A stretch of DNA of 40,149 bases. Source: Flavobacteriales bacterium (GTDB lineage: Bacteria > Bacteroidota > Bacteroidia > Flavobacteriales_F > PHOS-HE28). The translations under genes and the position numbers were made by a program. Numbering within the stretch: position 1 is the stretch's first letter; each line of letters begins with the position of its first letter. The stretch lies in contig JBEICT010000003.1 in assembly GCA_040383865.1 (NCBI GenBank), positions 1 to 40,149 on the forward strand, read 5' to 3'. The notes beneath the pieces were generated by a model, which ran no database searches, was not told the DNA's origin, and worked only from the letters and a program-made list of their open reading frames with translations. Below, piece after piece: positions 7,518 through 38,370 of the stretch.

Positions 7518-9023
7518 ATGGAAAAGCTCCCAAGTACCCTCGGCGAACTGAAGCAAAGCGGTTTTCGCCCCCGCAGCGTGAAGGAAGAGCTCCGCTCTAA
7601 CCTCATCGCCCGTATCCGCGCAGGCCAGCCGCTCTTCGAGGGTATCCACGGCTACGAGCATACGGTGGTGCCCGCTCTCGAACGCGCCATCCTCGCCGGG
7701 CACAGCATCAACCTGCTCGGCCTTCGTGGACAGGCCAAGACGCGCATGGCCCGCTCGCTCGTGCAGTTATTGGATGAATGGGTCCCCGTGGTGGCCGGAA
7801 GCGAGATCAACGATGATCCCCTGGCACCCATTTCGCGTCATGCCAAGGACCTTATTGCGCAGCTCGGCGATGCCACGCCCATCGCCTGGCTGCACCGCGA
7901 CCAGCGCTACACCGAGAAGCTAGCCACCCCGGATGTCACCGTGGCCGACCTTATTGGCGACAGCGATCCCATCAAGGCCGCGAACCTCAAGCTCGATTAC
8001 AGCGACGAGCGCGTGATCCATTTCGGCCTGATCCCGCGCAGCCATCGCGGCATCTTCGTGATCAACGAACTGCCCGATCTACAGCCACGCATCCAGGTGG
8101 CGCTCTTCAACATCCTGCAGGAGGGCGATGTGCAGATCCGCGGCTTCAAGTTGCGATTGCCGCTGGATATCCAATTCGTCTTTACCGCCAACCCCGAGGA
8201 CTATACCAATCGCGGAGCCATTATCACCCCGCTGAAGGACCGCATCCAGAGCCAGATCCTTACGCACTATCCACCCACCATCGAGCTGGGCATGCGCATC
8301 ACCGCGCAGGAACTTCGTTCTCCCAAGGAGCAGCTCACCCGGGTGCGCGTGCCCGATCTGCTGCGGGTGCTCATCGAGCGCATTGCTCTGGAAGCACGAG
8401 AGAGCGAGTTCGTGGACCGCAAGAGCGGCGTCAGTGCGCGCCTCACCATCAGTGCCCTCGAGAGCGTGATCAGCGCGGCCGAGCTGCGTGCCCTGCGCAA
8501 TGGCGAGGACCGCACCGTTGCCCGCATTGGAGACCTGCAGGCCGTGGTGCCCGCCATTACCGGCAAGGTGGAGCTCGTTTACGAGGGTGAACAGGAGGGG
8601 CCCGAGAAGGTGGCGCACCACCTGCTGGACCTGGCCATCCGCAATGTGTTCGCGGGCCTGTTCCCCGACCCCGTGAAAGCCCGAAAAAGGGCCAAGGCCG
8701 ATGCCACGGCAGTGCAGCGTTCAGCGGACCCCTACCTCGGCATCGTGGAGCATTTCGACGTGGCACACTGCGATCTGCCTGCTTCCGCCCCCAATGCCGC
8801 CTACACCAAGACCCTGCGCGCCGTACCCGGTCTGCTCGATCTGGTGCGTGCCCGCCACAACTACCTCGATGAGGAGGAGCAGCTCCTGTGGGCGGAGTTC
8901 GTGCTGCACGGCCTGGCCGAGCATAGCCGGATCGGCCGCACAAAGACCTCCGGTGCCGCCCGGTTCGGCGACCTCATGAGCGCCATGCTCAGTGGCGATA
9001 CCGAGGAGGAGGAACTGGGGTGA
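7518..9023 (+). CDS. AAA+ ATPase, magnesium-chelatase/MoxR-like clade
   Basis: Walker A variant GLRGQAKT, Walker B variant IFVINELPDL, FTANPEDY, LKDRI arginine finger, GVSARL sensor II; start could be 7497. Confidence 0.85.
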   Translation: MEKLPSTLGELKQSGFRPRSVKEELRSNLIARIRAGQPLFEGIHGYEHTVVPALERAILAGHSINLLGLRGQAKTRMARSLVQLLDEWVPVVAGSEINDDPLAPISRHAKDLIAQLGDATPIAWLHRDQRYTEKLATPDVTVADLIGDSDPIKAANLKLDYSDERVIHFGLIPRSHRGIFVINELPDLQPRIQVALFNILQEGDVQIRGFKLRLPLDIQFVFTANPEDYTNRGAIITPLKDRIQSQILTHYPPTIELGMRITAQELRSPKEQLTRVRVPDLLRVLIERIALEARESEFVDRKSGVSARLTISALESVISAAELRALRNGEDRTVARIGDLQAVVPAITGKVELVYEGEQEGPEKVAHHLLDLAIRNVFAGLFPDPVKARKRAKADATAVQRSADPYLGIVEHFDVAHCDLPASAPNAAYTKTLRAVPGLLDLVRARHNYLDEEEQLLWAEFVLHGLAEHSRIGRTKTSGAARFGDLMSAMLSGDTEEEELG

Positions 9024-27547: not shown

Positions 27548-28840
27548 TCAGGCCTTCACGCTCCAGCCGTACAGGGGCTTCAGGCGCATCATGCCGTTCA
27601 CCTGGAAGCGGATGCGGCGAAGTTCCTCGTCGTCGTTGGGGTGGCGCAGGGCGTAGTCGATCAGCTCCACGATCTGGCGGCAATCGTTCTCCTTGAGGCC
27701 GCGCGTGGTGATGGCCGCCGTGCCGATGCGGATTCCGCTCGTTACGAAGGGGCTCTTGTCATCGAAGGGCACCATGTTCTTGTTCACGGTGATGTGCGCC
27801 TCGCCCAGTACGCGCTCGGCCTCCTTGCCGGTGATGCCCTTGTTGCGCAGATCGATGAGCATGCAGTGGTTGTCGGTGCCGCCGCTCACCACGTTGTATC
27901 CCTTGTCCATCAGGGCCTTGGCCAGGGTCTGCGCGTTGGCGATCACCTGTTTGCCATAGCCCTCGAAGGCCGGGTCGAGCGCTTCGCCGAAGGCCACCGC
28001 CTTGGCCGCGATCACATGCTCCAGCGGGCCGCCCTGCGTACCGGGGAACACGGCCCCGTCCAGCACCGCGCTCATCATGCGCACCTCGCCTTTCGGGGTG
28101 GTCAGGCCCCAAGGGTTGGGGAAGTCCTGGCCCATCATCATCAGGCCGCCGCGGGGACCGCGCAATGTCTTGTGCGTGGTGGTGGTGACCACATGGCAGT
28201 GGGGCAGCGGGTCGTTCAGCAGTTTGGCGGCGATCAGTCCGGCGGGATGGCTCACATCGGCGAGCAGGATGGCGCCCACTTCATCGGCAATGGCGCGGAA
28301 GGCCGCATAGTCCCAATCGCGGCTGTAGGCGCTGGCACCGCAGATGATGAGCTTCGGTTTTTCGGCCAGGGCCTTTTCGCGGACCTTGGCCATGTCCACC
28401 AGGCCGGTGGCCTGTTCAACGCCATAGAAGGTGGCGCGGTACAGCTTGCCGCTGAAGTTCACCGGACTGCCGTGGGTGAGGTGGCCACCGTGGCTCAGAT
28501 CGAAACCAAGGATGGTGTCGCCGGGCTTCAGGCAGGCCAGCATCACGGCCGCGTTGGCCTGCGCGCCGCTGTGGGGCTGCACGTTGGCCCAGTCCGCACC
28601 GAAGAGCTTCTTCACCCGCTCAATGGCCAGGTTCTCCACGGCGTCCACATGCTCGCATCCACCGTAGTAGCGCTTGCCCGGCAGCCCTTCGGCGTATTTG
28701 TTGGTGAGCACCGAGCCCATGGCCTCCATCACCGCCTCGCTCACGTAGTTCTCGCTCGCGATCAGCTCCAGCCCGATGGTCTGGCGCCATTTCTCCTGTT
28801 CAATGACGTCGAAGACCGCGGTGTCGCGTTGGTTGCTCAT
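27548..28840 (-). CDS. glyA: serine hydroxymethyltransferase
   Basis: [47 protein letters not shown]; start trimmed to ATG 28840. Confidence 0.98.
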
Positions 28841-28877
28841 GATGGTGAAGGATCGGGGCCGCACGTTGCGGACCGTC

Positions 28878-28885
28878 CAAAGGTA
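28878..28885 (-). promoter_or_regulatory. Bacteroidota -7 promoter element of glyA
   Basis: TACCTTTG 37 nt upstream of ATG. Confidence 0.6.
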
Positions 28886-28896
28886 GCCGCGCGCAG

Positions 28897-29358
28897 CTAT
28901 TCGGACCGCCGGCCTGGCAACAGCGCGGCCGCCCAGAGCAGGAAGAGCACTACCGGGTATTGCAGCAGGTGCAGCAGCTTCACCGATACGCCATAGAGCG
29001 GTGGTAGCTGGGCGGACAAGGCCTGCAGGACCAGGGCGAGCGCTCCCACGGACGTGAACCCGATCACCAGCGCCGTGCGGTACCGATGATCGCCGAACAC
29101 CAGGCGCGCCATGCCGATGCACAGCACCAGCATGCTGGCGCTCATGGCTACGGCCAGTGCCCACTTGAGGCGCACCAAGGCGCCCAGGCCAAGCCCTTCG
29201 GTCCACCCGCGGAACAGGGAGTGGGCGTAGGACACGGTGCGGTGGTGCTCCACGAAGTCGATCTGGTAGTTCAGGTTCACCAGCAGGAAATCGCGAACGG
29301 CACCCAGCGCCACGGCAATGGCCAGGATCAACAGGATGCCGATACGCCGCCGGGTCAT
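28897..29358 (-). CDS. exosortase-associated membrane protein
   Basis: 4 predicted TM segments; [15 protein letters not shown] and LQYP motifs; ATGA overlap with exosortase stop. Confidence 0.7.
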
Positions 29359-29912
29359 GCGGGTCGGGCCTTCGGCGTGGTGGGCGCGAACCGCTTCACC
29401 CAGATGGCCCAGAGCAGGAACACCCAGCCATAGACCACTACATAGAAGGTGTAGTCGTGATTGAAGGTGAGCAGTTCATAGTCGTACCGCGCCACGATCA
29501 CCAGTACCACGATGCGTAGCACGTTGATGAGGTGGATGGAGATCAGGCCCGCGGCCCCGAACCAGAGCTTGTGGCGACAGGGACCGGGGTAGGCGGCCAG
29601 GAAGATGAGGTAAACGGCGAACAGGCTCACGCCGTTGCAGGGGTCGCCGATCCAGAGATGGCTGCCACCCTGGATGCCGATGTAGCGGTTGCTGTCGAAC
29701 TGCGGCTCGGGCAACAGGGTGTAGCCCAACGCCTCCAACGTGCCGCCGGACAGCAGCATGAGGTTGTCGATCACCGCGCGATCAAGCGTTCCTTGGGGAT
29801 GCAGTACGAGTTCGTAAAGCAGGTACCAGCCCACGTAGAGCAGGGCGGCCAAGAGAAAGAAAAGGACCACGGGGTCGCGCTTCGCCACCCGGGGGGTGGG
29901 AAGAGGGGACAT
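29355..29912 (-). CDS. exosortase/archaeosortase family transpeptidase (XrtX/XrtF-like)
   Basis: catalytic triad Cys (IGDPCNG), Arg (INVLRI), His (FNHDYTF); multi-TM; ATG 29912 in TGATG overlap with upstream small gene. Confidence 0.88.
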
Positions 29913-30121
29913 CACTTATCGGAGTTGGCGGAGCGACGCAGCTCCATGGCCTTTCGGCCACCCAGCAAAGCACCGGCGGCGATCAACCCACCAATACCAC
30001 CATCGATGGGGATACAGGGCGGGGGCCAGCAGGGGGGCGGACCTCCACCTGGCTGGGCCAAGGCGACCAAAGGGCCTACCACAAGGGCCAACGTCAGAAG
30101 GAGACGAAAGGGTCGAAGCAT
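29912..30121 (-). CDS. small PID-CTERM protein-sorting-signal protein (exosortase substrate)
   Basis: signal peptide ..ALA-Q, 15-aa Pro/Gly/Cys core, then PIDGG + TM (IGGLIAAGALLGG) + basic tail (RK..RR); own -7 box and coupling to exosortase. Confidence 0.82.
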   Translation of the reverse strand: MLRPFRLLLTLALVVGPLVALAQPGGGPPPCWPPPCIPIDGGIGGLIAAGALLGGRKAMELRRSANSDK

Positions 30122-30149
30122 GATGGGCTTACCAGAGAACAACTGCCGC

Positions 30150-30157
30150 CAAACTTA
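30150..30157 (-). promoter_or_regulatory. -7 promoter element of exosortase operon
   Basis: TAAGTTTG, exact consensus, 28 nt before ATG 30121. Confidence 0.6.
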
Positions 30158-30180
30158 ACACAATCGGCCGGACCGCGCAG

Positions 30181-30200
30181 AACTTGTTGCTCAACAAGTT
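30181..30200. promoter_or_regulatory. perfect palindrome between divergent promoters (putative operator)
   Basis: AACTTGTTG-ct-CAACAAGTT, AT-rich in a GC-rich context. Confidence 0.45.
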
Positions 30201-30249
30201 ATCCACCGCCACCAGCGCATGGTTCCGATCGCCGGACCGTTGGGCCGCC

Positions 30250-30257
30250 TATATTTG
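30250..30257 (+). promoter_or_regulatory. -7 promoter element of polysaccharide operon
   Basis: TATATTTG, exact consensus, 69 nt before wzc-like ATG. Confidence 0.6.
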
Positions 30258-30326
30258 CCCGTCCCGGCCACAAGCACCAACTGCCGGGGTAGAGGGCCCG
30301 TCCGTCCGTGGGGCCGATCCCGTTCA

Positions 30327-32750
30327 ATGGCCTCACCCAAACCCCAGCAGCGCGGCAGTATCATCGACGCAAAGGACCTGCGTCAGTACCTCCGCGTCGC
30401 CTCCAAGAACTGGTACTTCGTCGCCGTGGCGCTGGTGCTCTCCGGCGTGCTGTCCTACCTCTACAGCTATAAGCTGCCCGATATCTATGGGGCCACCACC
30501 CAGGTGCTGCTCAAGGATAACGAGGTGTACGACTACCAGACCTCGATGTACAAGAGCCTGGGCTACGTCGGCGCATATGGCGACATCGTCAACCAGAAGC
30601 GCGTGCTCACCTCGTACGATCTGGTGAACGCCACCCTCGACCGCCTCGATTTCGACGTGTCCTACTTCATCGTGGGGCGCTTCAAGACCTCGCAGGTGTA
30701 TGCCACGCAGCCCTTCACCGTGGAGATGGACGTGTTCAACGGCAAGCTGTACGAACGCCCCATCGACCTGCGCATCATCGACACCAAACGGTACGCCATC
30801 AGCTATGACCTGGGCGGGGCCATTGTCACCAAGGAGTACCCCTTCGACCAGATGGTGCAGGAGCAGGAGTATACCCTGAAGGTGGTGCGGTCGCCGTACG
30901 TGAACGAGCAGACCATCAACACGCTGGCCGCCACGGACTACCAGTTCATTCGCCACGAGCGTTCTGCGCAGGTGAAGCGCTGCATCGAGCGCATGAAGGT
31001 GCTGAACCACGACTACACCACCATCCTGGAGGTGACCATGGAGGACGAGGTGGCCATCCGGGCCAAGTTGTTCCTGGACACCCTTTCCAAGGTATATATC
31101 CAATACACCCTCCAGAGCGAGTTCGACATCAATGAGAACACACTGGGCTACATCGACAAGCAGCTGGCCGAGGTGACGGTGATCCTGGAGGAGCACGAGG
31201 GCGAGCTTCAGAACTACAAGGAGAGCAAGGACATCATCGACCTGCCGCGAGAGGAGAGCCTTTTCTTCAACGAAATGGTGCGCTTCGATAACCAGAAGCG
31301 CCGCATGGAACTGGACATTCAATCGCTGGACGCACTGGAGGATTATGTGCTGCACAGCGACGATGAGCGGCTGTTGCCCCCGGCCACCTTCATCATGGAG
31401 GACGCGTTCCTTCGGTCCACGCTCAGCGAGCTGTATGAGCGGCAGATGCAACGCAACCGCATGCTCTTCCAGGGCACACCATACAACATCAGCATCCAGC
31501 AGCTCGATTCCACGGTGCAGTACATCCGGGGGAACCTGCTGGGCTACATCAAGAACTCGCGCAACGCGCTGCGGGGCAAGATCCACGACGTGGAGATGCA
31601 GGTGGCCGATTACGAGGGAATGCTGCGCAGCCTGCCCAAGAGCCAGCGCGACATCATCAAGATCCAGCGGCGTGTGCAGGTGAACGAGAAGATGTACCTC
31701 TTCCTGTTGGAGAAGCGCGCCAGTACCGTGATCGCCAGGGCCGGTATCATTCCCCAGACCAAGGTGATCGAGAGCGCGCGATCGCTGGGCGTGGTGCGTC
31801 CGGACAAGATGCGCATCTTCTACACCTTCATGCTCGGCGGGCTCATCATCTCGCTGTTGGTGGTGTTCGTGCGTGTGATGTTCTACGACCGCATCGAGAA
31901 CATGGACCAGTTGAAGGAGCTCACCACCCTGCCCATCTACGGCGAGGTGGTCGTGAGCGATAAGGCCGAGGAGAACTACGTGGTGGTGGACAGCGATCCC
32001 AAGGCGGCCATCACGGAGAGCTTCCGTACGGTGCGCACCAACCTGGAGTACATACCCAGCCCCGAGGGCCGTGGCAAGGTGGTGATGACCACCAGCTACC
32101 GCCCCAACGAGGGCAAGACCTTCTGCTCGGTGAATCTCAGCGCCATCCTGGCCAAGGCGGGCAAGCGCGTGCTGCTGCTGGAGCTCGATCTGCACAAGCC
32201 CAAGGTGGGTGCCGGCCTGGGCATGTCCAGCACTGTGGGCCTCAGCAACGTGCTTATCGGCAAGGTCCATTGGCGTGATTGTGTGCTGCACTCGCAGTTC
32301 GAGAATTTCGATGTGCTGCTCGCCGGCCCCACGCCGCCCAACGCCTCGGAGCTTATCCTCAGCAAACACCTGGAGGCCCTGTTCCGCGAGGCCAGCCTCG
32401 AATACGATTATGTGATGGTGGACACCCCGCCCGTGGGCCTCATCACCGATGCCCTGCTGATGATGCGCCACGTGGACGCCACGCTCTTCGTGCTGAACAC
32501 GCGCTTCGCCAACAAGGACCACGTGAACAATGCCCTGGAGGCCCTGGCCGGCAACCCCACGAAGAACACCGGCTTCATCCTGAACGGGGTGCGGATGAAG
32601 AAGAGCAAGTATTACTACAACACCAACTACGGCTACGGATACCGCTATGCCTATGGCTATGGCACCGGCTATGGCTACGGTTACGGCTACGGCAGGCGCA
32701 GCAAGCGGTCCAAGGAGGATGGTGGTAAAGGCACGGATACCCGCGCATGA
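30327..32750 (+). CDS. wzc: polysaccharide co-polymerase / tyrosine autokinase (Wzc-like, PCP-2a)
   Basis: two TM flanking a coiled-coil periplasmic domain; ESFRTVRTNL, Walker A PNEGKT, A' LLELDLHKP, B VMVDTPP; C-terminal Tyr cluster. Confidence 0.92.
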   Translation: MASPKPQQRGSIIDAKDLRQYLRVASKNWYFVAVALVLSGVLSYLYSYKLPDIYGATTQVLLKDNEVYDYQTSMYKSLGYVGAYGDIVNQKRVLTSYDLVNATLDRLDFDVSYFIVGRFKTSQVYATQPFTVEMDVFNGKLYERPIDLRIIDTKRYAISYDLGGAIVTKEYPFDQMVQEQEYTLKVVRSPYVNEQTINTLAATDYQFIRHERSAQVKRCIERMKVLNHDYTTILEVTMEDEVAIRAKLFLDTLSKVYIQYTLQSEFDINENTLGYIDKQLAEVTVILEEHEGELQNYKESKDIIDLPREESLFFNEMVRFDNQKRRMELDIQSLDALEDYVLHSDDERLLPPATFIMEDAFLRSTLSELYERQMQRNRMLFQGTPYNISIQQLDSTVQYIRGNLLGYIKNSRNALRGKIHDVEMQVADYEGMLRSLPKSQRDIIKIQRRVQVNEKMYLFLLEKRASTVIARAGIIPQTKVIESARSLGVVRPDKMRIFYTFMLGGLIISLLVVFVRVMFYDRIENMDQLKELTTLPIYGEVVVSDKAEENYVVVDSDPKAAITESFRTVRTNLEYIPSPEGRGKVVMTTSYRPNEGKTFCSVNLSAILAKAGKRVLLLELDLHKPKVGAGLGMSSTVGLSNVLIGKVHWRDCVLHSQFENFDVLLAGPTPPNASELILSKHLEALFREASLEYDYVMVDTPPVGLITDALLMMRHVDATLFVLNTRFANKDHVNNALEALAGNPTKNTGFILNGVRMKKSKYYYNTNYGYGYRYAYGYGTGYGYGYGYGRRSKRSKEDGGKGTDTRA

Positions 32751-33652
32751 TCCGTGGTGATATGGACGTGCGCAGGTTGAGCGAAACGAACGGTGGTCGT
32801 GACCAGGAGCTTCCGTTGCGGGTGTATTCCCCGGAGGCCTTGATCCGTTCCCCGCGCACGTTGTTCGCCGACATGGCGCATGACCTCTGGCGGTCCCGTG
32901 AACTGGCCTGGCGGTTGGCGATCCGGGATGTGCGCTCGCAATACCGCGGATCCCTGTTGGGCTATTTCTGGGCCTTTATCACTCCGTTGTTCAGCACTGC
33001 GGTCTGGGTGTTCCTGAGCGCCACCGGCGTGGTGAAGGTGGCCAGTACCGATATCCCCTATCCTGCATACGTGTTCTCGGGGACCATGCTCTGGCAGATC
33101 TTCACCGAGGCGTTGAGCTCACCACTTGGGCAGATCAATGCAAGCAGGAGCATGTTGGCCAAGTTGAATTTCCCCCGGGAGGCGCTCATCCTCAGTGGTG
33201 CGATCAAGGTGATCTTCAACGCCGTTGTGAAGGTGATGGTCCTGGTGCCCGCGCTTTTCCTGTTCGGTGTATTTCCGGATGCGCATATGGTATACTTCCC
33301 ATTGGCCGTGGGCGTGCTCATTCTGGTCGGCCTTTCCGTAGGCCTTTTGCTCGCCCCCTTGGGTACCCTGTATACCGATATCGGCCGGTTCATTCCGTTG
33401 GTCACCCAATTGCTCATGTATCTCACCCCCGTCGTGTTCGCCATGCCGACCGCCGGCACCATGGCGCGATTGTTCGGGGCGAATCCACTGACACCGGTTG
33501 TGCTCACTGCCCGCGCCTGGCTTACAGGTGCTGAAAGCCCCATGTTCACCTATTTCCTGGCCGTCGCAGGATGTGCGTCGGTCCTGCTGTTGATCGGTTG
33601 GTTCCTGTATCGTATCACCATGCCCGTTCTGATCGAGCGGATGAGTTCCTGA
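32747..33652 (+). CDS. polysaccharide ABC transporter permease (Wzm-like)
   Basis: RDVRSQYRGSLLGYFWAFITP, KLNFPRE, MYLTPVVF, NPLTP; ATGA overlap with wzc (alternative start 32762). Confidence 0.9.
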   Translation: MIRGDMDVRRLSETNGGRDQELPLRVYSPEALIRSPRTLFADMAHDLWRSRELAWRLAIRDVRSQYRGSLLGYFWAFITPLFSTAVWVFLSATGVVKVASTDIPYPAYVFSGTMLWQIFTEALSSPLGQINASRSMLAKLNFPREALILSGAIKVIFNAVVKVMVLVPALFLFGVFPDAHMVYFPLAVGVLILVGLSVGLLLAPLGTLYTDIGRFIPLVTQLLMYLTPVVFAMPTAGTMARLFGANPLTPVVLTARAWLTGAESPMFTYFLAVAGCASVLLLIGWFLYRITMPVLIERMSS

Positions 33653-33654
33653 GC

Positions 33655-34866
33655 ATGAAAGAAGCGGCACTCATCAAGGTGGAAGGCGTCTCCAAGAAGT
33701 TCTGCCGGGACCTGAAGACCTCCCTGCGGTATGGTGTCATGGATGTCAAGGATGAGCTGCTTGGTCGGTCCCGGACGAGCGAACTTCGAAAGAAGGAGTT
33801 CTGGGCCGTGCATGATGTGTCCTTCGAACTTCATCGCGGCGAATGTTTGGGATTGATCGGGCACAACGGTGCGGGCAAGACCACCCTGCTGCGGATATTG
33901 AACGGGTTGATCAAGCCCGATTTCGGCCGTATCGAGATCCGTGGACAGGTGGGTGCGCTTATTGCCTTGGGTGCCGGGTTCAATCCCATACTCACCGGGC
34001 GGGAGAACATCTACATCAATGCCTCGGTACTGGGGCTCACCCGGAGGCAGGTCGACGAGCGGATCGAGGAGATCATCGATTTCGCCGAGATGGCCGAGTT
34101 CATCGACATGCCCGTGCAGCACTACAGTTCGGGCATGACCGTGCGGCTCGGGTTCGCCGTGGCCGCCATCCTCATCGAACCGGATATCCTCTTCCTGGAC
34201 GAGGTCCTGGCCGTTGGTGACATCGGATTCACCATCAAATGCCTGAACCGGGTGCGCCAGCTGATGCGGACCTCCGCGGTCGTCTTCGTTTCGCACAGCA
34301 TGCCGTTCATCTCCTCGTTCTGTACCAGGGTGCTGGTCATGGACCACGGACGCACTGTTCTCGACACCACGGAAACTGGGCGTGCCATCAACCACTATTA
34401 CGGGCTCGCCGCCAGCGCCGCCCAGGTGTCGGGCACGGGTGGTGCCGAGGTGCTGGGCATCCGGATGTCCGCCGATGGTGTGGAGTACGGGGGAGGGGTC
34501 CCCAGCATCGCACAAGGCGCCGAGGTGATCGTCACGCTGCAGGTCCGGGTGGCACACGGCCGCACGGCGGACCAGATCACCCTCTTCGTGGACGATGCGA
34601 CCATGAGCAACCTGCTCGCGGTGCCCGTGAAGGATGGGAACGGGGCCTACATCGCTCTTGGGGCCGGTATACATACGCTGAGGATTCCGGTGGGCCGGTT
34701 GGAATTGAACGCCGGCCGCTATTCCTTCATGGTCTATCTGCGCGATGCCAGCGACCAGACCGGTCTCTGCCGCCACCAGGGTCTGCTGCCCTTCAGCGTG
34801 CATGCCGAGCGGGTGTTCTGGTCGCGCTTTGTGCGGGAGGGCGTTTCCGAGCAGCTGCCCGGTTGA
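33655..34866 (+). CDS. polysaccharide ABC transporter ATPase with C-terminal extension (Wzt-like)
   Basis: FWAVHDVSF, GHNGAGKTT, YSSGMTVRLGFA, FLDEVLAVGD, VSHS; ~150-aa beta-rich C-domain with LNAGRYSF. Confidence 0.92.
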   Translation: MKEAALIKVEGVSKKFCRDLKTSLRYGVMDVKDELLGRSRTSELRKKEFWAVHDVSFELHRGECLGLIGHNGAGKTTLLRILNGLIKPDFGRIEIRGQVGALIALGAGFNPILTGRENIYINASVLGLTRRQVDERIEEIIDFAEMAEFIDMPVQHYSSGMTVRLGFAVAAILIEPDILFLDEVLAVGDIGFTIKCLNRVRQLMRTSAVVFVSHSMPFISSFCTRVLVMDHGRTVLDTTETGRAINHYYGLAASAAQVSGTGGAEVLGIRMSADGVEYGGGVPSIAQGAEVIVTLQVRVAHGRTADQITLFVDDATMSNLLAVPVKDGNGAYIALGAGIHTLRIPVGRLELNAGRYSFMVYLRDASDQTGLCRHQGLLPFSVHAERVFWSRFVREGVSEQLPG

Positions 34867-36830: not shown

Positions 36831-37771
36831 TGGATAGCATCAGCCAATGCTCGCTAGAGGGTGTGCTGGAAGCCCTTCGCCAGTTGGGCATACCGCACCG
36901 CCTTGTTGGCCCGGCACGTCCGGTCCGAAAGGTGTGCAGCCTCCTCCATAAGGAACCCCAGGGCCTTTACTACTACACGGGCAACGCACCGGGGCCGTTC
37001 AATGACCTGGTCGATTCCGTGGTGATCTGCAGGTCGGAGGTGGCCGGATCCACAGGTACGTGTTCCAGCATCGCAGTGGAGGAGGATCCCCAGTTGGTCT
37101 TTTACCGCTTGTGCGGTCTGCTGTTCAGAACGGCCTCATCTTCTGGGATACATCCCACGGCCATAGTCCATCCGGATGCGGAGATCGGCGAACGGGTATC
37201 CATCGGGCCCTATGCCGTGATCGGACGGTCCAGGATCGGTGATGATTCGGTGATCCATGCGCACGTGGTGGTGATGGATGGATGTGAGATCGGCAACCGT
37301 GTGGTGATCGAGGCTCACAGTTGCATCGGAGCTACCGGAGTTGCCTGGATCTGGGATGATAGAGGTGAGCGTGTTATTCTCCCTCAGCTAGGCGGGGTAA
37401 CTATCGGCGACGAGGTGTTTCTCGGAACGGATGTGACGGTGGTGCGTGGCATGATAAACGAGGCCACCACCATCGAGCAGGGCTGCATGATCGCCCACGG
37501 CACCAAGATCGGACACAGCGTTCGGATGGGGCCGCATTGCCATGTAGCCAACAACGTGAGCATCGCTGGCTCCGCACAGGTCGGGGCTAGGAGCTTTTTG
37601 GGCGCTGGATGCAGCCTTCGACCTCATGCCATCCTCGCTGAAGGCACGATCGTGGGTGTGGGCGCTGCTGTGATCAAGAACGTGACCAAGCCTGGACCGA
37701 TCCAAGCTGGGGTGCCCGCCAAAGAGATGCCCGCCAAGGAGAAGCCATCAGGCATGCCAAAGCCTAGATGA
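36830..37771 (+). CDS. LpxD-like hexapeptide-repeat acyltransferase
   Basis: N-terminal ..EDPQLVF then IHPTAIVHPDAEIG, PQLGGVTIGDEV, TKIGHSV, AGVPAK; TGATG overlap with DegT. Confidence 0.85.
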   Translation: MDSISQCSLEGVLEALRQLGIPHRLVGPARPVRKVCSLLHKEPQGLYYYTGNAPGPFNDLVDSVVICRSEVAGSTGTCSSIAVEEDPQLVFYRLCGLLFRTASSSGIHPTAIVHPDAEIGERVSIGPYAVIGRSRIGDDSVIHAHVVVMDGCEIGNRVVIEAHSCIGATGVAWIWDDRGERVILPQLGGVTIGDEVFLGTDVTVVRGMINEATTIEQGCMIAHGTKIGHSVRMGPHCHVANNVSIAGSAQVGARSFLGAGCSLRPHAILAEGTIVGVGAAVIKNVTKPGPIQAGVPAKEMPAKEKPSGMPKPR

Positions 37772-37782
37772 CCGCGCAGCTG

Positions 37783-38370
37783 TCATTGCTCAAAGCCGCC
37801 TTCAATGAAGTCCTTTTTCTTCCAGTACTCCTTCTGCTTCAGTGCTTTGACGGGAACGCCGACGTAGATGCCGCTCTCCGTGAGGTCCTTGTTGACGAAG
37901 CCCATCGCTCCGATCGTCACATCGTTGGAGATCTTCACACTCGCTGCGATCTTGCTCCCTGCACCGATGTAGCAACGCTCGCCGATGACCGTGCCGTGCT
38001 TCGTTTCGTGAAGGTGTGTGCTTCCAAGCGTGATCACGTTCGGGCCCAGGAAGGCCCCTTTCTTGATCAGCACGCGGCTCGTGAGGATCGTGCCATACTT
38101 CAGCGTCACATCGTCCTCGATCTCACAGCTTTCCGCCGTGCGGATACGGCCTTGCAGGTTCACATTGCGGCCAGCGACGAGATTCTTCCCGATCTCGCAA
38201 TGATTACCCACACTGCTGCCATTTCCCAGTTGCACATTGTCTCCGATGATGGTGTAGCTGCCGATGGTGACGTTATCCCCGAAGACACAGCCCTTGCCAA
38301 TAATTGAGAAGTTGCCGATCTTGAAGTTGGCCCCGGTCTTCAGGTCCTCGGCCAAGATGTTCATGCTCAT
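37783..38370 (-). CDS. hexapeptide-repeat acyltransferase (inverted within locus)
   Basis: continuous [IV]G hexapeptides, FLGPNVIT, YVGVPVK; own -7-like box TATCTTCG at 38389-38396. Confidence 0.85.
   Translation of the reverse strand: MSMNILAEDLKTGANFKIGNFSIIGKGCVFGDNVTIGSYTIIGDNVQLGNGSSVGNHCEIGKNLVAGRNVNLQGRIRTAESCEIEDDVTLKYGTILTSRVLIKKGAFLGPNVITLGSTHLHETKHGTVIGERCYIGAGSKIAASVKISNDVTIGAMGFVNKDLTESGIYVGVPVKALKQKEYWKKKDFIEGGFEQ

Follow-up and report, generated by a model that had tools for sequence, protein, structure and literature searches.

The XrtX module and its precursor

The window analysed here is a stretch of 40,149 nucleotides (nt; positions 1 to 40,149, forward strand) of contig JBEICT010000003.1 from assembly GCA_040383865.1 of a Flavobacteriales bacterium. 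At positions 28897-30121 its minus strand carries three overlapping genes, coding for a very small PID-CTERM precursor, an exosortase (XrtX) and a membrane protein that accompanies XrtX. The A of the precursor's TGA stop codon is also the first base of the xrtX ATG (a TGATG overlap), and the xrtX TGA overlaps the ATG of the partner gene in the same manner (ATGA). An earlier prediction made from the letters alone (the original prediction below) had described three translationally coupled genes with these two overlaps; the three-gene module is confirmed.

The precursor gene (29912..30121, minus strand) has its ATG at 30121 and codes for 69 amino acids (aa) followed by the stop codon. Residues 1-22 (nt 30121-30056) form a signal peptide ending in A-L-A, after which cleavage can be expected. 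Residues 23-37 (nt 30055-30011) are a Pro/Gly/Cys core of 15 residues, QPGGGPPPCWPPPCI, none of which is Ser, Thr, Asn, Lys, Asp or Glu. Residues 38-69 (nt 30010-29915) constitute the PID-CTERM signal, which starts with the PIDGG motif, continues with a hydrophobic stretch rich in Gly and closes with a basic tail. The original prediction had read the precursor in just this way.

xrtX (29355..29912, minus strand) codes for 185 aa when read from its ATG; a GTG one codon upstream, at 29915, is an alternative start. Cys92, Arg133 and His152 are the candidate catalytic residues. The last gene of the module (28897..29358, minus strand) codes for a protein of 153 aa with four hydrophobic segments, as predicted for a partner with four transmembrane helices.

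Family assignment

The window system is a member of the catalogued XrtX/PID-CTERM family, and its parts are already named by curated hidden Markov models (HMMs) of NCBIfam. XrtX scores 173.5 bits (E=3.4e-51) against NF046081, which has a cut-off of 170, and 173.1 bits in the genome search. The precursor scores 25.9 bits against NF046080 (PID_CTERM, cut-off 26) with hmmscan and 27.2 bits in a six-frame search of the genome; the match covers nt 29951-30010. The original prediction had named this family and proposed an HMM search as a check; the search brought both proteins to the curated cut-offs or above them. The motif, the hydrophobic stretch, the basic cluster at the extreme C-terminus and the N-terminal signal peptide are all found in the sequence and in the precursor alignment A2. 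No Pfam model matched the precursor in our search. Its relatives in the protein collection carry the precomputed Pfam label PF28310, and one of them (P0112) is named "PID-CTERM protein-sorting domain-containing protein" by NCBI.

Among 65 distinct XrtX-like sequences, none lacks Cys92, Asn130 or Arg133, and 63 have His152; all four residues are invariant in the XrtX alignment A1. The catalytic Cys-Arg-His triad is thus intact, as had been claimed. The exosortase superfamily model TIGR04178 gives the enzyme 49.2 bits. Two other assignments were rejected. The enzyme is not XrtF, as it scores 72.5 bits against TIGR04128 with its cut-off of 90. A PEP-CTERM/XrtA system was dismissed on three grounds: the motif is P-I-D and not P-E-P, the genome has a single match, and XrtA is absent from the 13 NCBIfam matches. 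The structure model of XrtX is confident, with a predicted local distance difference test score (pLDDT) of 90.8. A comparison of this model with solved folds gave no match at E<=0.001, and a sequence search of the PDB gave none at E up to 10.

The membrane protein is best regarded as a divergent member of NF046082 on account of its position, its size, its four hydrophobic segments and its alignment with 22 positional orthologues. In this alignment of 23 sequences K65 is invariant, and R22, N30, L61 and P135 are kept in at least 90%. We also considered a DsbB/VKOR-like oxidase acting on the cysteines of the precursor and rejected it: across the 23 aligned sequences there is one non-conserved Cys and no Cys motif.

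The XrtX cut-off is passed in 14 of 41 relatives' genomes and in 83 of 301 genomes sampled from the class; XrtX is found at E<=1e-30 in 119 of the 301 (the class tallies for XrtX and PID_CTERM count one unpublished genome, G118, as positive). The clade with CWPPPC precursors and linked to wzc scores right at the 170-bit cut-off, so the curated model would leave many of its members unnamed. Among the loci fetched for comparison, the top XrtX scores (223-249 bits, genomes G126 and G169) belong to systems whose precursors lack a Cys pair and which have no wzc nearby. A search of relatives with the XrtX protein alone confirmed at least nine loci, all in assemblies of uncultured organisms.

The small open reading frame is a gene

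The window is GC-rich (genome GC 0.609) and holds many spurious open reading frames (ORFs), so a frame of 69 codons might be open by chance. Such a reading is refuted by the conservation, the homologues and the codon pattern. The 13 residues PPCWPPPCIPIDG are invariant in 23 distinct precursors of the same genus, while 2-4 synonymous codons are used per position at 12 of the 13 positions, the exception being Trp with its single codon. This protein-level selection argues that the ORF is translated; the original prediction had named conservation and translation of the small ORF as points on which it would stand or fall. AT-rich genomes from other families code for the same peptide, the PID_CTERM match lies above the cut-off, and the protein collection holds 445 precursor homologues of 37-121 aa. 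Seven more relatives have 122-239 aa; the three of these that were read are all start-codon over-calls.

The mature part, taken from the inferred signal cleavage to the motif, has a median length of 19 residues (range 7-32) in 76 distinct precursors and consists of 41% Pro, 20% Gly, 9% Cys and 0.2% Lys. Gln occupies position +1 in 50 of the 76, the cleavage site being assigned heuristically. The N-terminal Gln noted in the original prediction fits the Q-rule described for Bacteroidota (PMC5837995, PMC10653852).

A Cys pair stands just upstream of the P-I-D motif in 64 of the 76 precursors, with a Cys 1-3 residues before the motif. Four residues separate the two cysteines in 58 of the 64, and this fixed spacing suggests a disulfide loop. 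The other 12 precursors have one Cys or none, are often acidic in this place, and in 11 cases lack any Cys near the motif.

The position of the Cys is reminiscent of MYXO-CTERM proteins, whose invariant Cys has an equivalent position and, according to one proposal, receives a lipid before the protein is cut (PMC11980579). A two-step route of this type, in which a separate enzyme lipidates the Cys and XrtX only removes the helix, would account for the Cys next to the motif in the 64 precursors. We find it very improbable here, given the 12 precursors without a pair, the fixed spacing of the paired cysteines and an enzyme which is an exosortase and not a CPBP protease. Membership in a MYXO-CTERM-like system was likewise rejected, as the Cys pair is not invariant and the adjacent enzyme is an exosortase; a CPBP enzyme was not searched for. 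In the reading we prefer, and set out below, it is XrtX itself that hands the peptide over to an acceptor.

Mostly one precursor per genome, and no folded cargo seen

In the window genome (454 contigs, 92% complete, 3.44 Mb) the PID_CTERM HMM has a single match. A loose pattern scan gave eight matches, of which one, the window precursor, is credible. The genome-wide count of PIDGG-helix-basic ORFs that the original prediction had proposed therefore gives one, and the window precursor is the only PID-CTERM gene found in the genome.

PID_CTERM matches occur in 158 of the 301 class genomes: 124 have one match and 34 have 2-5, which makes 211 in total. The open frames span 33-222 codons among the 150 of 211 matches listed, and the signal almost always lies in frames of about 60-120 codons. 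Six of the 150 listed frames exceed 130 codons; three of these are ordinary precursors of about 70-75 aa within long GC-rich frames. Two more of the six are real proteins of about 200 aa (L118 and L119) in genome G032, the largest carriers seen. Their mature regions are of low complexity and rich in Asn, Glu, Gly and Phe; G032 has no XrtX at E<=1e-30 and has an exosortase at 80 bits only. No PID signal attached to a folded-domain cargo was seen among the matches listed in the 301 genomes. The claim that the cargo has no folded domain therefore stands, for the window genome and for the class sample. It had been presented as a feature of this locus; the absence of cargo is a property of the whole family.

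XrtX and PID_CTERM co-occur in 111 of the 119 genomes positive for XrtX at E<=1e-30, and the precursor adjoins XrtX in 23 of 30 relatives' loci. The PID signal is found without XrtX at this threshold in 47 genomes. Five of these were checked, and each has a more divergent exosortase (34-133 bits, none above the XrtY cut-off). Several genomes carry more than one precursor gene. At one locus (L095) two precursors in tandem (CWQPPC and CWSPPC variants; 8296-8526 and 8695-8934) lie upstream of a single xrtX, while in genomes G126 and G205 the precursor genes are scattered, with up to five per genome.

Besides XrtX, the window genome codes for a second and unrelated exosortase, XrtK, whose gene lies on a different contig (C164; L103:1291-1824, plus strand; TIGR04287, 121.3 bits with a cut-off of 55). 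Behind the XrtK gene comes a long ORF which is rich in hydrophobic segments and runs off the locus; upstream of the XrtK gene, on the other strand, is a fatty-acid desaturase-like gene.

Polysaccharide export genes and glyA

Divergent from the module, about 100-200 bp away, is a gene for a wzc-type chain-length determinant and tyrosine autokinase (30219..32750, plus strand; Wzz, GNVR and AAA_31 domains; TIGR01007, 148.6 bits, cut-off 108.05). Its relatives align from about residue 33-54 onward, which indicates that the true start is probably the ATG at 30327. The C-terminus (32640-32750) has an unusually long Tyr/Gly tail with runs of G-Y dipeptides and then a basic end; the tail is presumably an autophosphorylation cluster. 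Two overlapping ORFs (32747..34866, plus strand) code for an ABC-2 permease and an ATP-binding cassette (ABC) ATPase resembling a Wzm/Wzt exporter. They are followed by genes for an FkbM methyltransferase, a DegT aminotransferase, a hexapeptide acyltransferase and two glycosyltransferases of family 2 (GT2). A 179-aa ORF (37768-38307, plus strand) between the acyltransferase gene and the first GT2 gene matches neither Pfam nor NCBIfam.

The octamer TAnnTTTG, a possible -7 promoter element of Bacteroidota, is found at 30150..30157 on the minus strand, 29 nt upstream of the precursor ATG, and at 30250..30257 on the plus strand, facing wzc. Both are candidate promoter boxes. The window contains five matches to the octamer with 4.08 expected, so the matches on their own are weak evidence.

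Up to 20 kb around XrtX was fetched from 40 further genomes. Of these loci, 35 each represent a different family, two are further loci of a family already counted, and three belong to the genus of the window. Five of the stretches were shifted to take in a distant precursor, and several are cut by contig ends. Neighbour counts are inflated by relatedness among the loci. A wzc homologue is found in 25 of the 40 fetched stretches, that is in 21 of 36 families including the window's own. The linkage to wzc across relatives, on which the original prediction had partly relied, accordingly holds in many families. With three wzc-like genes in the 3.44 Mb of the window genome, adjacency by chance would be expected at about 2%. 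When sorted by precursor type, wzc accompanies 24 of 29 loci with a Cys pair, one of six without the pair and none of five in which no precursor was found. Clustering of the ORFs of all 41 loci, the window included, placed XrtX in 37 of them and wzc and the partner in 26 each. For the ABC exporter the counts were 16 (permease) and 15 (ATPase), for glyA 15 and for DegT seven. The amino sugar made by the DegT enzyme had been put forward as an acceptor for the peptide, and this link is not conserved, with a DegT-like gene in seven of 41 loci.

Directly downstream of the partner gene is glyA, coding for serine hydroxymethyltransferase (27548..28843, minus strand; PF00464, 545 bits). Fifteen of the 40 fetched loci have it, and in families throughout the class its place is immediately after the XrtX module or, at L062 and L065, after the peptide gene itself. 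A TAnnTTTG box at 28878-28885 (minus strand) suggests that glyA has a promoter of its own.

A lectin-like secreted protein at other loci

The clustering also brought up an unexpected gene, present in 21 of the 41 loci, for a large protein of 800-1980 aa. The protein carries a type A C-terminal domain of type IX secretion systems (T9SS) and weak G8, PKD or SprB matches. Its nearest likeness is to LamG-like jellyroll T9SS proteins (ESM Atlas score 0.97), which can serve as a lead only. In 20 loci the gene immediately precedes the precursor gene, on its strand, and in the other locus it comes downstream of the partner; L067:10592-13573, L077:6359-9391 and L097:2035-5025 are examples, with 18 more loci. 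At L087 a different protein with SprB repeats takes its place. Where the precursor is 4-16 kb away from xrtX (L062, L065, L076, L097 and L098), the T9SS gene stays with the precursor. The three loci of the window's genus (L099-L101) have no large T9SS gene; relatives with 24-29% identity are encoded elsewhere in the genome. The picture of the neighbourhood drawn in the original prediction is hence right about wzc and incomplete in having overlooked this gene at the loci of other families.

The tendency of the peptide gene to stay with the T9SS gene away from xrtX is one of several observations that would suit a different role for the mini-protein. It could be a subunit or regulator bound to XrtX and its partner, remaining uncleaved or persisting as a long-lived acyl-enzyme, and the complex would tune the divergent exporter (Wzc/ABC) or else the way in which the T9SS lectin-like protein is displayed. 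In most genomes the enzyme gene has one substrate gene to go with it (a single PID match in 124 of the 158 positive genomes); translational coupling joins the three genes; and strong conservation extends over both the hydrophobic helix and the "cargo". Against this role, tripartite signal and catalytic residues are retained just as true sorting systems retain them, and genomes with 2-5 precursors and one XrtX (G126 has five) look like an enzyme with its substrates. We therefore hold the subunit role to be quite unlikely and favour cleavage and transfer by XrtX.

Proposed mechanism

We propose that XrtX cleaves the precursor at its PID signal and hands over a peptide, some 15-18 residues long, to an acceptor, either a lipid or a glycan, which is connected with the export of polysaccharide. 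By analogy with better characterised sorting enzymes, we give this reading a probability of about 0.6. Its parts differ in strength. Cleavage of the window precursor by XrtX is likely; transfer of the peptide to an acceptor other than water has about even chances; and assignment of the acceptor to the polysaccharide pathway is tentative and rather doubtful.

The steps, which are modelled on sortase, archaeosortase ArtA and rhombosortase, could be as follows. The precursor would be exported by Sec and cut after A-L-A, and the new N-terminal Gln would probably be cyclised to pyroglutamate. The short Gly-rich C-terminal helix would tether the peptide in the inner membrane. Cys92 of XrtX would then attack at or next to P-I-D, with the helix and the basic tail being discarded. 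What is left of the precursor, 15-18 residues in the form of a Pro-rich rod with a C-W-P-P-P-C loop at its end, would be taken up by a nucleophile other than water. The best candidates for this acceptor would be the head group of a membrane lipid and a lipid-linked glycan handled by the export machinery encoded next door. The cell surface would thereby gain a small lipo- or glycopeptide acting together with the polysaccharide and, where the T9SS lectin-like protein is co-encoded (about half of the families), with this protein as well.

Docking of XrtX with precursor residues 23-69 gave a median score of 0.32 (0.32, 0.02 and 0.49 in the three runs); the best of three controls reached 0.00. The docking mark is reached by 58 of 80 solved complexes and by 2 of 110 mismatched pairs; at scores of 0.60 or below it is reached by 7 of the 80 solved complexes and by both passing mismatches. 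The support for the complex is weak. Between runs, at least 72% of the contacts agree; the docked partner has a pLDDT of at least 54.

It can also be argued that XrtX is a protease only, releasing the peptide with a free C-terminus, and joined to no acceptor, into periplasm or medium to serve as a signal, as a regulator of Wzc or as a small structural peptide. In favour of this, the mature part is very small and has hardly any Lys, Ser or Thr. Its strongest conservation adjoins the cut site, as would be expected for recognition by an enzyme or a receptor. No conserved acceptor-making gene lies nearby in the 41 loci, nor was a femAB/VimA-like gene found in the genome. Arguments for transfer come from ArtA and rhombosortase, which leave a lipid-type moiety on their substrates (PMC7468200, PMC11980579), and from the enzyme itself, as a thiol enzyme with conserved Arg and His is suited to transfer as well as to hydrolysis. 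On balance release by hydrolysis appears unlikely, and transfer to an acceptor is still our preferred explanation.

Two particular forms of transfer were rejected. An aminoacyl-sugar acceptor is disfavoured, since the window genome (92% complete) has no match to a pepcterm_femAB/VimA-like gene and DegT-like genes are found in seven of 41 loci. Head-to-tail cyclisation via the N-terminal amine is unlikely as a general rule, as Gln stands at +1 in 50 of 76 precursors by the heuristic assignment and the amine would be blocked if this residue cyclises.

Several observations weigh against the proposed mechanism. wzc is missing from 15 of the 40 fetched stretches, and on the XrtX tree the link between Cys pair and wzc reduces to two independent pairs on supported branches. 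As the pair is absent from 12 of 76 precursors, it is not essential to the chemistry of the family. The two carriers of about 200 aa in G032 mean that "micro" is not absolute as a description of the substrates, and 61 weaker PID_CTERM matches fall outside the set listed with frame lengths. The partner scores 20.3 bits (E=3.6e-4) against NF046082, which has a cut-off of 75. One of the three docking runs ended at 0.02. A single metatranscriptome mapping has no cover over 28916-31039; cover was limited to conserved parts of glyA and bits of wzc, mostly less than 90% alike. Finally, the literature searched contains no paper with the term "PID-CTERM", none with "XrtX" in the sense used here and no experiment on XrtX.

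The transfer mechanism can be extended to a more specific proposal, which we regard as improbable and offer as speculation: a capped, disulfide-looped Pro-rich peptide would be put on a Wzm/Wzt-Wzc glycan or on a surface-bound lipid and would there serve as a dock for the T9SS LamG/lectin-like protein. If true, this would be the first defined product of an exosortase and a new way of joining polysaccharide export to T9SS. Taken as a whole, the interpretation given in the original prediction keeps its family assignment, the conservation of the small gene, the lack of a folded cargo and the link to wzc, and loses the link to DegT.

Significance

The acceptor of exosortases, a question open since the family was described, is still called an "unidentified compound" in PMC7468200. 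The XrtX system has one cargo only, about 15-20 residues long and poor in Lys, Ser and Thr, which makes it very tractable for mass spectrometry: a modified C-terminus would sit on one small and predictable peptide. The module is also common (XrtX in 119 and the PID signal in 158 of the 301 class genomes). Its frequency, its association with polysaccharide loci and the requirement for XrtF in biofilm formation (see below) together suggest that its function probably matters for the surface biology of environmental and wastewater Bacteroidota.

What is new here is the selection acting on the small ORF, the single substrate, the class-wide lack of folded cargo and the counts of Cys pairs, wzc and T9SS genes. 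Three puzzles stand out: the Cys-x4-Cys loop with an aromatic residue beside the cut site, the recurrence of glyA, and the tie of the peptide to a T9SS lectin-like protein in other families.

Comparison with known systems

The closest system is the XrtX/PID-CTERM system of NCBIfam (NF046081, NF046080 and NF046082), with which the window shares the gene order, the tripartite signal and the catalytic residues. It differs in that the window clade scores at the cut-offs, with the partner far below its own (20.3 vs 75). Unlike about half of the XrtX families, the genus of the window also lacks the large T9SS gene at the head of the operon.

The PEP-CTERM/XrtA (EpsH) system of Gram-negative bacteria that make exopolysaccharide shares the enzyme superfamily, a sorting signal composed of motif, helix and basic tail, and the association with a chain-length determinant/tyrosine kinase and an exopolysaccharide locus. 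The window system, in contrast, has P-I-D as its motif, one tiny substrate instead of many protein cargos and a minimal enzyme of 185 aa, and no femAB-type gene was found in its genome.

Archaeosortase A with PGF-CTERM and rhombosortase with GlyGly-CTERM exchange a tripartite C-terminal signal for a lipid-type anchor (PMC7468200, PMC7157517, PMC6219818), which is the reaction we envisage for XrtX. Their substrates, however, are folded proteins, with rhombosortase being a serine protease and unrelated. All of these enzymes, exosortases included, are thought to work as transpeptidases (PMC11980579, PMC7468200); the literature searched contains no lipid product of a bacterial exosortase.

In T9SS of Bacteroidota, PorU joins the C-terminus of the cargo by an amide bond to an aminoacyl sugar, the linking sugar of anionic lipopolysaccharide (A-LPS) made by the Wbp/Vim pathway (PMC7468200). 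As a speculation, its authors raise the possibility of a similar acceptor for exosortases, and they link a femAB/VimA-type marker to exosortase loci (Veith et al., PMC7468200). A further point of contact is the T9SS cargo gene that often heads the XrtX operon in other families. PorU nevertheless belongs to another enzyme family and acts at another membrane, and XrtX loci have DegT in seven of 41 cases and the window genome no femAB/VimA-like match.

MYXO-CTERM and myxosortase resemble the window system in the conserved Cys just before the C-terminal helix and in the existence of dedicated pairs of enzyme and substrate (PMC11980579). They differ from it in that the enzyme is a CPBP intramembrane protease, the Cys is single and not one of a spaced pair, and the substrates are folded.

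The most informative comparison for physiology is with XrtF of Flavobacterium johnsoniae. Deletion of xrtF (Fjoh_1448) or of the gene for its partner (Fjoh_1449) abolishes the formation of biofilm and zorbs and reduces the colonisation of sand (PMC10936215); the authors state that the substrates of XrtF are unknown. Both in F. johnsoniae and in the window, the gene for a small Bacteroidota exosortase is followed by one for a small membrane partner, and XrtF is the only close relative of XrtX for which there is genetic evidence.

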